From NCBI RefSeq assembly GCF_000027125.1, contig NC_017626.1: a stretch of 64,000 nt of DNA, one strand, 5' to 3'. Under the pieces are notes generated by a model. It worked only from the letters and a program-made list of their open reading frames with translations. It ran no database searches and was not told the origin of the DNA. The translations under genes and the position numbers were made by a program. The DNA is from Escherichia coli 042 (GTDB taxonomy: Bacteria > Pseudomonadota > Gammaproteobacteria > Enterobacterales > Enterobacteriaceae). This document shows positions 18,746-20,703 of the stretch, one piece after another (position 1 is the stretch's first letter; each line of letters opens with the position of its first letter).

Positions 18746-19645
18746 ATGAAACCCGACGCACACCAGGTTAAACAGTTCCTGCTCAACCTTCAGGATACAA
18801 TTTGTCAGCAGCTGAGCGCCGTCGATGGCGCAGAGTTTGTCGAAGATAGCTGGCAGCGCGAAGCTGGCGGCGGCGGACGTAGCCGGGTGTTGCGTAATGG
18901 TGGTGTTTTCGAACAGGCGGGCGTCAACTTTTCACATGTCCACGGTGAGGCGATGCCTGCTTCCGCCACCGCTCATCGTCCGGAACTTGCCGGGCGCAGT
19001 TTCGAGGCGATGGGCGTTTCACTGGTAGTGCATCCGCATAATCCGTATGTTCCCACCAGCCACGCGAATGTGCGCTTTTTTATTGCCGAAAAACCGGGTG
19101 CAGAGCCCGTCTGGTGGTTTGGCGGCGGCTTCGATTTAACCCCTTTCTATGGATTTGAAGAAGACGCCATTCACTGGCACCGCACCGCCCGTGACCTGTG
19201 CCAGCCATTTGGTGAAGACGTTTATCCCCGTTACAAAAAGTGGTGCGACGAATACTTCTACCTCAAACATCGCAACGAACAGCGCGGCATTGGCGGGCTG
19301 TTCTTTGATGATCTGAACACCCCAGATTTCGACCACTGTTTTGCCTTTATGCAAGCGATAGGTAAAGGCTACACCGACGCTTATTTACCAATTGTAGAGC
19401 GGCGTAAAGCGATGGCCTACGGCGAGCGCGAGCGCAATTTCCAGCTTTATCGGCGCGGTCGCTATGTCGAATTCAACCTGGTATGGGATCGCGGCACGCT
19501 GTTTGGCCTGCAAACCGGCGGGCGCACCGAGTCGATCCTGATGTCAATGCCGCCGCTGGTACGCTGGGAGTATGATTATCATCCAGAAGATGGCAGCCCG
19601 GAAGCGGCGTTAAGTGAGTTTATTAAGGTCAGGGATTGGGTGTAA
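18746..19645 (+). CDS. hemF: Oxygen-dependent coproporphyrinogen III oxidase
   Basis: 299 aa from [23 protein letters not shown]; the track ORF starts one codon earlier at an in-frame GTG. Confidence 0.95.
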
Positions 19646-19650
19646 CTCCC

Positions 19651-20703
19651 TCACCCCCATTCCCGCATCCGCTGATGCAGCGTCAACGACGGCTTCTCGG
19701 CAAACAGCTGCTGGTAATCCGTGGCAAATTGCCCCAGATGCCAGAATCCCCACTGCATGGCGGCGTCTTTTACCGTTGTGCTTTGCGACCAAGGGCTTAT
19801 CAGTTCGCGGCGTACGGCGTTCAGGCGAATGCGTTTCAGCCACGCATTTGGGCCAATGCCTAAAATAGCGTGAAACGCGTTTTGTAGCGTGCGGCGGCTG
19901 ACATGCAGTTGATTACACAAGTCCAGCACCGTCACCGGTTCGGACATGTTTTCCAGCACATATTCACGGGCGCGGGAAAGCAACCGACGGTAACTCTGAT
20001 GACTGATGCTTTCCGCCGTCACCATTGGCTGCGCTTCTTCCAGCATCGCCCCCATCGCCATGAGCAAATTATCCCCCAGCACTTTACGCACAGCAGGCTG
20101 ATGAAGATTTTCCGGGTTCTCGCAAAATGTCGCCAGCGCCTGTTGGACAAAGCCCCACAGCGCGGCTTTATGCTGTTCTTTCACTTCCAGCGCCGACTGG
20201 CTACGCAGCATATGTAATACCCGATCCGGATTATGCAAAAAGTTAGCCTGACGGGTGATGACATCTTCAGAAAGCACTACGCCCAGGATCGTGTAATCGT
20301 CCGGCGTACTTAATTCAAACTCGGTTCCACCGGGGCGCGTCGCTATTTCTGCGCTTCCCAGACATTGCGAACCGATAAATCCCTGCTCACCGCGCGTCGC
20401 CGGAATGCCAAACCAGAACGAGTTCGGCCAGACCAGGCACGACTGACGCAGCGCCAGACCGGTGTATTCACGAAAAACCTGAATATCATCGAGTAGAATT
20501 TCCGTAAATTCACCATGAAACTTGCCCGGATGCAGCTGATCGTAAATCTGCTGCCAGGCGGTAATCGTTAAAGCATGTTCATAGACATCCGTTGTCTGTC
20601 GTTGATGAACATTATCCACTTCGACCTTCGGCGTGAGCTTCAGGTTTTCGGGTAAGGGTTCATGATAAAGATGGTGCAAATTGGCTGTACGGGTCTTTTT
20701 CAT
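19651..20703 (-). CDS. eutR: AraC-family transcriptional activator of the eut operon
   Basis: 350-aa ORF with a C-terminal AraC-type HTH; sits at the distal end of the eut cluster. Confidence 0.93.

Follow-up and report, generated by a model that had tools for sequence, protein, structure and literature searches.

The hemF–eutR junction in Escherichia

The stretch of DNA analysed here (hereafter the window) comprises 64,000 nucleotides of the Escherichia coli 042 genome, and in it two genes converge tail to tail. hemF (18746..19645, plus strand) encodes oxygen-dependent coproporphyrinogen III oxidase and ends in a TAA stop codon at 19643-19645. eutR (19651..20703, minus strand), the last gene of the eut operon, encodes an AraC-family activator and ends in a TGA stop codon at 19651-19653, which reads TCA on the plus strand. 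These identities were obtained from the open reading frames, from Pfam (PF01218 for hemF; HTH_18 and HTH_AraC for eutR) and from annotation, in the case of hemF the RefSeq annotation of strains Ecol_316 and K-12. The reading frame called for hemF spans 18743..19645 (+) and yields 300 aa from a GTG codon, with the annotated ATG start at 18746; that called for eutR spans 19651..20703 (-) and yields 350 aa. Coprogen_oxidas (PF01218) covers residues 7-298 of the 299 in the hemF product (E 4.6e-136), and the AraC-type HTH covers residues 250-341 of the 350 in EutR. Because the Pfam domains of both proteins reach nearly to the C-termini, neither stop codon could sit much further upstream.

Direct reading of the plus strand at 19640-19656 gives gtg TAA ctccc TCA ccc, where the unstranded 5-bp spacer CTCCC separates one stop codon from the other. 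The first-pass annotation had described hemF and eutR as convergent with only 5 bp between their stops, and the sequence, the reading frames and the RefSeq annotation all placed this spacer at exactly 19646-19650. In the RefSeq annotation of Ecol_316, amiA-hemF faces eutR, as the final gene of an intact 17-gene eut operon, across the same 5-bp gap. A scan of the whole window against Rfam returned no match at the junction. Elsewhere in the window, the ES036 (CssrF) sRNA was matched at 5592-5634 (+) in the yfeS/cysM convergent spacer, with 41.1 bits against a gathering score of 37.6.

The junction was also found in other E. coli. The 601 bp around it are 100% identical to Ecol_316, and in K-12 MG1655 the spacer between hemF (2553225..2554124) and eutR (2554130..2555182) is likewise CTCCC. 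The order TAA-CTCCC-TCA was present in all five E. coli strains sampled over a range of 93-96% identity. A query spanning the junction was matched in 5,424 of 5,426 complete E. coli genomes; 5,393 of these were colinear across the junction, and up to 31 of the 5,424 were not. Window positions 18600-20400 form a local peak of divergence, in which identity to K-12 is 93-95% across hemF and the 3' half of eutR, against 98-100% in the flanks, and the segment 19350-19950 was found at an identity of at least 99% in only 36 of 5,425 E. coli records. This pattern suggests that the hemF/eutR allele of the window is rare and may have been recombined.

Spacing of the junction in other lineages and of other convergent pairs

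Genome contigs were scanned with EutR, which gave 63 loci; where hemF lay downstream, the gap was determined by tblastn followed by a walk to the stop codons. A gap of 5 bp was found only in Escherichia among the loci with adjacent hemF and eutR, with 8-150 bp elsewhere, and the overlap geometry is thus not conserved. Within Escherichia the length is constant, and both the sequence (CTCCC, TTTAT, TTACC) and the stop codons vary. In all genera the alignments of HemF and EutR extend to the final residue, which confines the difference to the spacer. Homologues of EutR with less than about 72% identity did not adjoin hemF.

In Citrobacter, the Klebsiella oxytoca group, Pseudocitrobacter and Salmonella arizonae the gap is mostly 54-150 bp, and in the loci examined it contains REP/BIME palindromes such as GCCGGATGCGACGC...GCGTCTTATCCGGCCTAC. 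These REP-spacer loci (L008-L041; for example L012 4054-4120 and L027 4054-4166) carry one to three REP/BIME-like palindromes of variable copy number and type. Three further loci of these genera have gaps of 425-973 bp, which fall outside this reading of REP content. REP elements were absent from the gaps of a Pluralibacter MAG (8 bp) and of Intestinirhabdus alba (19 bp). Parsimony mildly favours loss of the REP spacer in Escherichia over its gain elsewhere, but REPs turn over quickly.

A gap of about 1.8 kb was found in E. coli R32_14_1F (L003 3297-5130) and E. whittamii (L007 4060-5843), in each of which an island lies exactly between both stops. Both islands open with identical bases right after the hemF TAA, and they encode a 420-aa protein with a weak match to DUF1963 and a 105-aa hypothetical protein. 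The window itself holds a BIME array at another place in the eut operon, the eutH-eutG spacer (26869-27352), with 4.8 tandem copies of a 100-bp unit at 97% matches and three Rfam matches to naRNA4 (REP325-type); relative to Ecol_316, whose sequence around hemF/eutR is otherwise identical, this spacer has an additional 200 bp. Two junctions were found in the MAG 'Citrobacter sp. HRGM_Genome_0066', one of E. coli type (L004, with EutR 100% identical to that of the window) and one of Citrobacter type that includes REP (L036), and this MAG is therefore a mixed bin. Fragments of eutR at 95-98% identity also occurred on tiny contigs of assemblies labelled Bacillus hominis and Prolixibacteraceae (L060 and L061/L062), probably through contamination.

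The tight spacing was compared with that of other convergent pairs in K-12, for which four 50-kb stretches (200 kb) were sampled and gaps were read from the annotation. The gap from stop to stop was 5 bp or less, overlaps included, in 11 of the 31 convergent CDS pairs in these samples; examples are yadE/panD (3 bp), amiD/ybjS (-4), ycaM/ycaN (0), pdeD/yoaE (3), yebB/ruvC (1) and yhbQ/yhbS (-14). The spacing of hemF and eutR is therefore unexceptional, with roughly one third of the sampled K-12 pairs having no room for a terminator, and it is the tightest of the seven convergent pairs within the window (gaps of 41, 188, 88, 5, 102, 98 and 80 bp). In E. coli, convergent transcripts normally overlap. 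Conway et al. 2014 (PMC4161252) give complementary 3' ends for 276 of 370 convergent operons (75%), with a mean overlap of 286 nt, and ascribe the overlapping ends to missing or inefficient termination between the convergent units.

Termination past the two stop codons

The view of the first-pass annotation that the stops leave no room for a terminator was borne out: the spacer is 5 bp long, and a consensus scan of 18500-21000 found no terminator-like site within ~350 nt of the junction on either strand. Over these 2.5 kb two weak terminator-like sites were called, fewer than the 3.6 expected from shuffled sequences. The folds of the 3' extensions were marginal for the plus strand (z -2.06) and not significant for the minus strand (z -0.72), and neither strand showed a hairpin followed by a U-tract in the folded extension.

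On the hemF strand, published K-12 data place Rho-dependent termination inside eutR. Supplementary file 2 of Adams et al. 2021 (PMC7815308) lists a bicyclomycin-sensitive Rho termination region at MG1655 2,554,640 (+), class 'antisense eutR', with 78 reads upstream and 18 downstream in the untreated sample, 102 and 106 with bicyclomycin (BCM), a Rho score of 4.5 and p 8.9e-08. Its best-scoring coordinate lies 516 nt beyond the stop of hemF and corresponds, after checked coordinate mapping, to position 20161 (+) of the window, an approximate position in that the data set uses 800-nt windows and processed ends and covers K-12 in LB only; the surrounding sequence is nearly identical in the window and K-12. 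Antisense regions are common in this data set, making up 51.5% of its 1078 Rho regions. Its curated Term-seq 3' ends include none at 2,553,700-2,554,899 and none for hemF, and the SMRT-Cappable-seq supplements contain no hemF, eutR or amiA entries. The missing discrete 3' end fits diffuse Rho termination, low expression or both. The plus-strand reads in eutR could partly stem from an unmapped promoter inside eutR and not from hemF.

The base composition of the hemF 3' extension is consistent with recruitment of Rho. A C-rich, G-poor tract at 19646..19723 (+), antisense to the C-terminal codons of eutR and kept in K-12, is a candidate rut site on its base counts: these first 78 nt past the hemF stop contain C31/G17 (98th percentile of the window, both strands), and the first 30 nt contain C17/G3, within the top percentile of all positions on both window strands. 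The hemF-sense strand has another C>G bubble at 20006..20083 (+), with C32/G13 in 78 nt and an equivalent in K-12, just upstream of the published Rho peak. Peters et al. reportedly described in 2012 that Rho ends antisense and read-through transcripts where E. coli genes converge. Elsewhere in the eut operon, at window position ~23574 (+), the equivalent of MG1655 2,558,053, the data set of Adams et al. 2021 (PMC7815308) contains a strong Rho region that lies antisense to eutB, with 523 upstream reads, a Rho score of 23 and p 3e-86; this implies an abundant antisense transcript inside eutC/eutB in K-12.

On the opposite strand, the first 78 nt of the 3' extension of eutR and the eut operon (19573..19650, -), antisense to the C-terminal codons of hemF, form a possible rut site that is moderately C>G (C24/G14, 93rd percentile). 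The C>G bias is at the 93rd-95th percentile on the eutR side and at the 98th-100th on the hemF side. In E. coli 536, the Bobik laboratory inserted a transcriptional lacZ fusion between eutR and hemF, immediately behind the stop of eutR, to report on the eut operon; eut transcription therefore passes the eutR stop. The LB data set of Adams et al. 2021 (PMC7815308) has no entry antisense to hemF, under a condition in which eut is not induced. From its composition, we infer that Rho may reasonably be expected to terminate transcription on the eutR strand.

The first-pass annotation had deduced from the missing terminator that the two transcripts must overlap, and had left Rho out of account, a factor that does not depend on intergenic space. 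The overlap held for the hemF strand, which in K-12 runs antisense into eutR as far as the published Rho region 516 nt past the stop, and for the eut strand to the extent that transcription passes the eutR stop. Accordingly, we regard the locus, with a probability of roughly 0.8, as an ordinary tight junction at which, in Escherichia, the amiA-hemF unit and the last gene of the eut operon converge and transcripts are Rho-terminated inside the neighbouring gene, with the 3' overlap being a by-product of compact gene packing and not a dedicated regulatory link. RNA polymerase leaving hemF or eutR, with no terminator between the genes, would run antisense into the other gene; once the ribosome comes off at the stop codon, the untranslated C-rich RNA would recruit Rho, which would stop transcription within a few hundred nucleotides. 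The K-12 data set demonstrates the Rho mechanism on the hemF strand, and on the eutR strand it would apply by inference.

Alternative readings and comparison with known systems

It had also been proposed that antisense interference couples haem synthesis with eut regulation, and for this no support was found. In such a cis-antisense link, hemF read-through would lower eutR mRNA, or eut read-through would lower hemF mRNA, by duplex formation, RNase III cleavage or polymerase collision, and aerobic haem synthesis would be coupled to the control of ethanolamine utilisation. On the hemF strand, the one for which an antisense overlap has been shown, RNA extends across about 500 nt at the 3' end of eutR. 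Expression of EutR is weak and autoregulated, and even minor effects might therefore count. The convergent E. coli pair arfA-mscL, which cross-regulates through a 3' overlap (PMC10070815), is a proven precedent, and by analogy the coupling is possible in principle. However, we found no report of a link between hemF and eutR in the literature, reads are sparse (78 per 800 nt), and equal geometry occurs in about one third of the sampled K-12 convergent pairs. Spacing varies where the genes adjoin, from 54-150 bp with REP and 8-19 bp in two genera to the 1.8-kb island in some Escherichia. Nor was there extra synonymous constraint. Among 26 enterobacterial sequences, third-position variability was 0.79 in the last 25 codons of eutR against a mean of 0.89, and 0.84 at the 3' end of hemF against a mean of 0.93; it was not unusually low at either 3' end, which gives no hint of a conserved RNA element embedded there. 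All in all, we consider a functional link of this kind improbable. At the other end of eutR, codons 1-25 (window 20629-20703, -) had a third-position variability of 0.39 in the 26 sequences, far below the gene mean of 0.89.

Both transcripts might instead be ended near the junction by a bidirectional terminator of the collision type, in which a stem-loop across both stops acts together with head-on collisions of RNA polymerase. In this model (Ju et al. 2019; Wang et al. 2022), such terminators require a nascent stem-loop, and they are described as Rho-independent. The MFE folds of both strands do contain an imperfect hairpin at the junction (GGGAuUGGG / CCCAuUCCC, 8 pairs, with both stops in a 15-nt loop), but it is weak and confined to these folds. 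The repeat search called no inverted repeat there, the hairpin arms are merely the R-D/E-W codons of both C-termini, and an inverted repeat across the stops was rejected on these grounds. Read-through on the hemF strand is Rho-sensitive, in contrast to the Rho independence of collision terminators, and the Term-seq listing of Adams et al. 2021 for 2,553,700-2,554,899 contains no 3' ends near the junction, and hence no sharp, paired, Rho-independent ones. Furthermore, hemF and eutR are both weakly expressed, so collisions should be rare. A collision terminator is thus quite improbable.

A narrower form of the antisense link would concern Escherichia alone. Without the REP spacer of Salmonella, Citrobacter and Klebsiella, hemF read-through would cover the 3' 0.5 kb of eutR, and the antisense RNA could raise the threshold of eut induction when hemF is strongly transcribed, under aerobic conditions or peroxide stress. 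Basal EutR stems from a weak promoter and feeds a positive autoregulatory loop, which is why the antisense RNA could have such an effect. If true, ethanolamine use would be tied to oxygen status in this lineage specifically, which we hold to be very improbable.

The least probable reading is that intrinsic terminators are embedded inside the opposing coding sequences, such as a hairpin with a T-run at +20157..20186: the terminator-like match at +20157-20176, followed by TCTTTCACTT, does coincide with the window equivalent (20161) of the published peak, but this is a weak match, with three G-C among its 6 pairs and a loop of 8 nt, the segment 20120-20200 folds no more stably than random sequence (z 0.03), the coverage drop near the 20161 equivalent is abolished by bicyclomycin, Adams et al. 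2021 list no Term-seq peak there, terminator-like matches are fewer than in shuffles, and the scan of 18500-21000 gave no minus-strand candidate. The match at +20157 was consequently rejected as a true terminator.

Rho termination of tight convergent genes inside each other's coding sequences is textbook knowledge, and the hemF-eutR arrangement as such matters little. It is also already known, being annotated in every E. coli genome, and the Rho region of the locus is already published. A modest use may lie in the variation among lineages, in which one gene pair separated by 5 bp, by a REP-filled 54-150 bp or by a 1.8-kb island provides a natural series for the effects of spacing on expression.

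Compared with known systems, hemF/eutR shares with the overlapping convergent operons of Conway et al. the complementary 3' ends and the lack of effective intergenic termination. With the Rho-terminated antisense and read-through transcripts at convergent E. coli genes (Adams et al. 2021, PMC7815308) it has in common the convergent pair, the absence of an intrinsic terminator, a C-rich and G-poor 3' extension and BCM-sensitive read-through; nothing distinguishes it from other such pairs, and it is itself in the published list (2,554,640 +). Among convergent spacers filled with REP/BIME elements, the hemF-eutR junction fits in Citrobacter, Klebsiella (oxytoca group), Pseudocitrobacter and Salmonella arizonae, whereas that of Escherichia differs in having 5 bp and no REP. 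The pair arfA-mscL (PMC10070815) also consists of tail-to-tail E. coli genes, with the 3' UTR of one complementary to the 3' CDS of the other, and its mechanism is the one that had been proposed for hemF-eutR. For arfA-mscL, however, the effect has been shown experimentally and co-location is enriched in Enterobacterales, whereas the spacing of hemF-eutR ranges from 5 bp to 1.8 kb.
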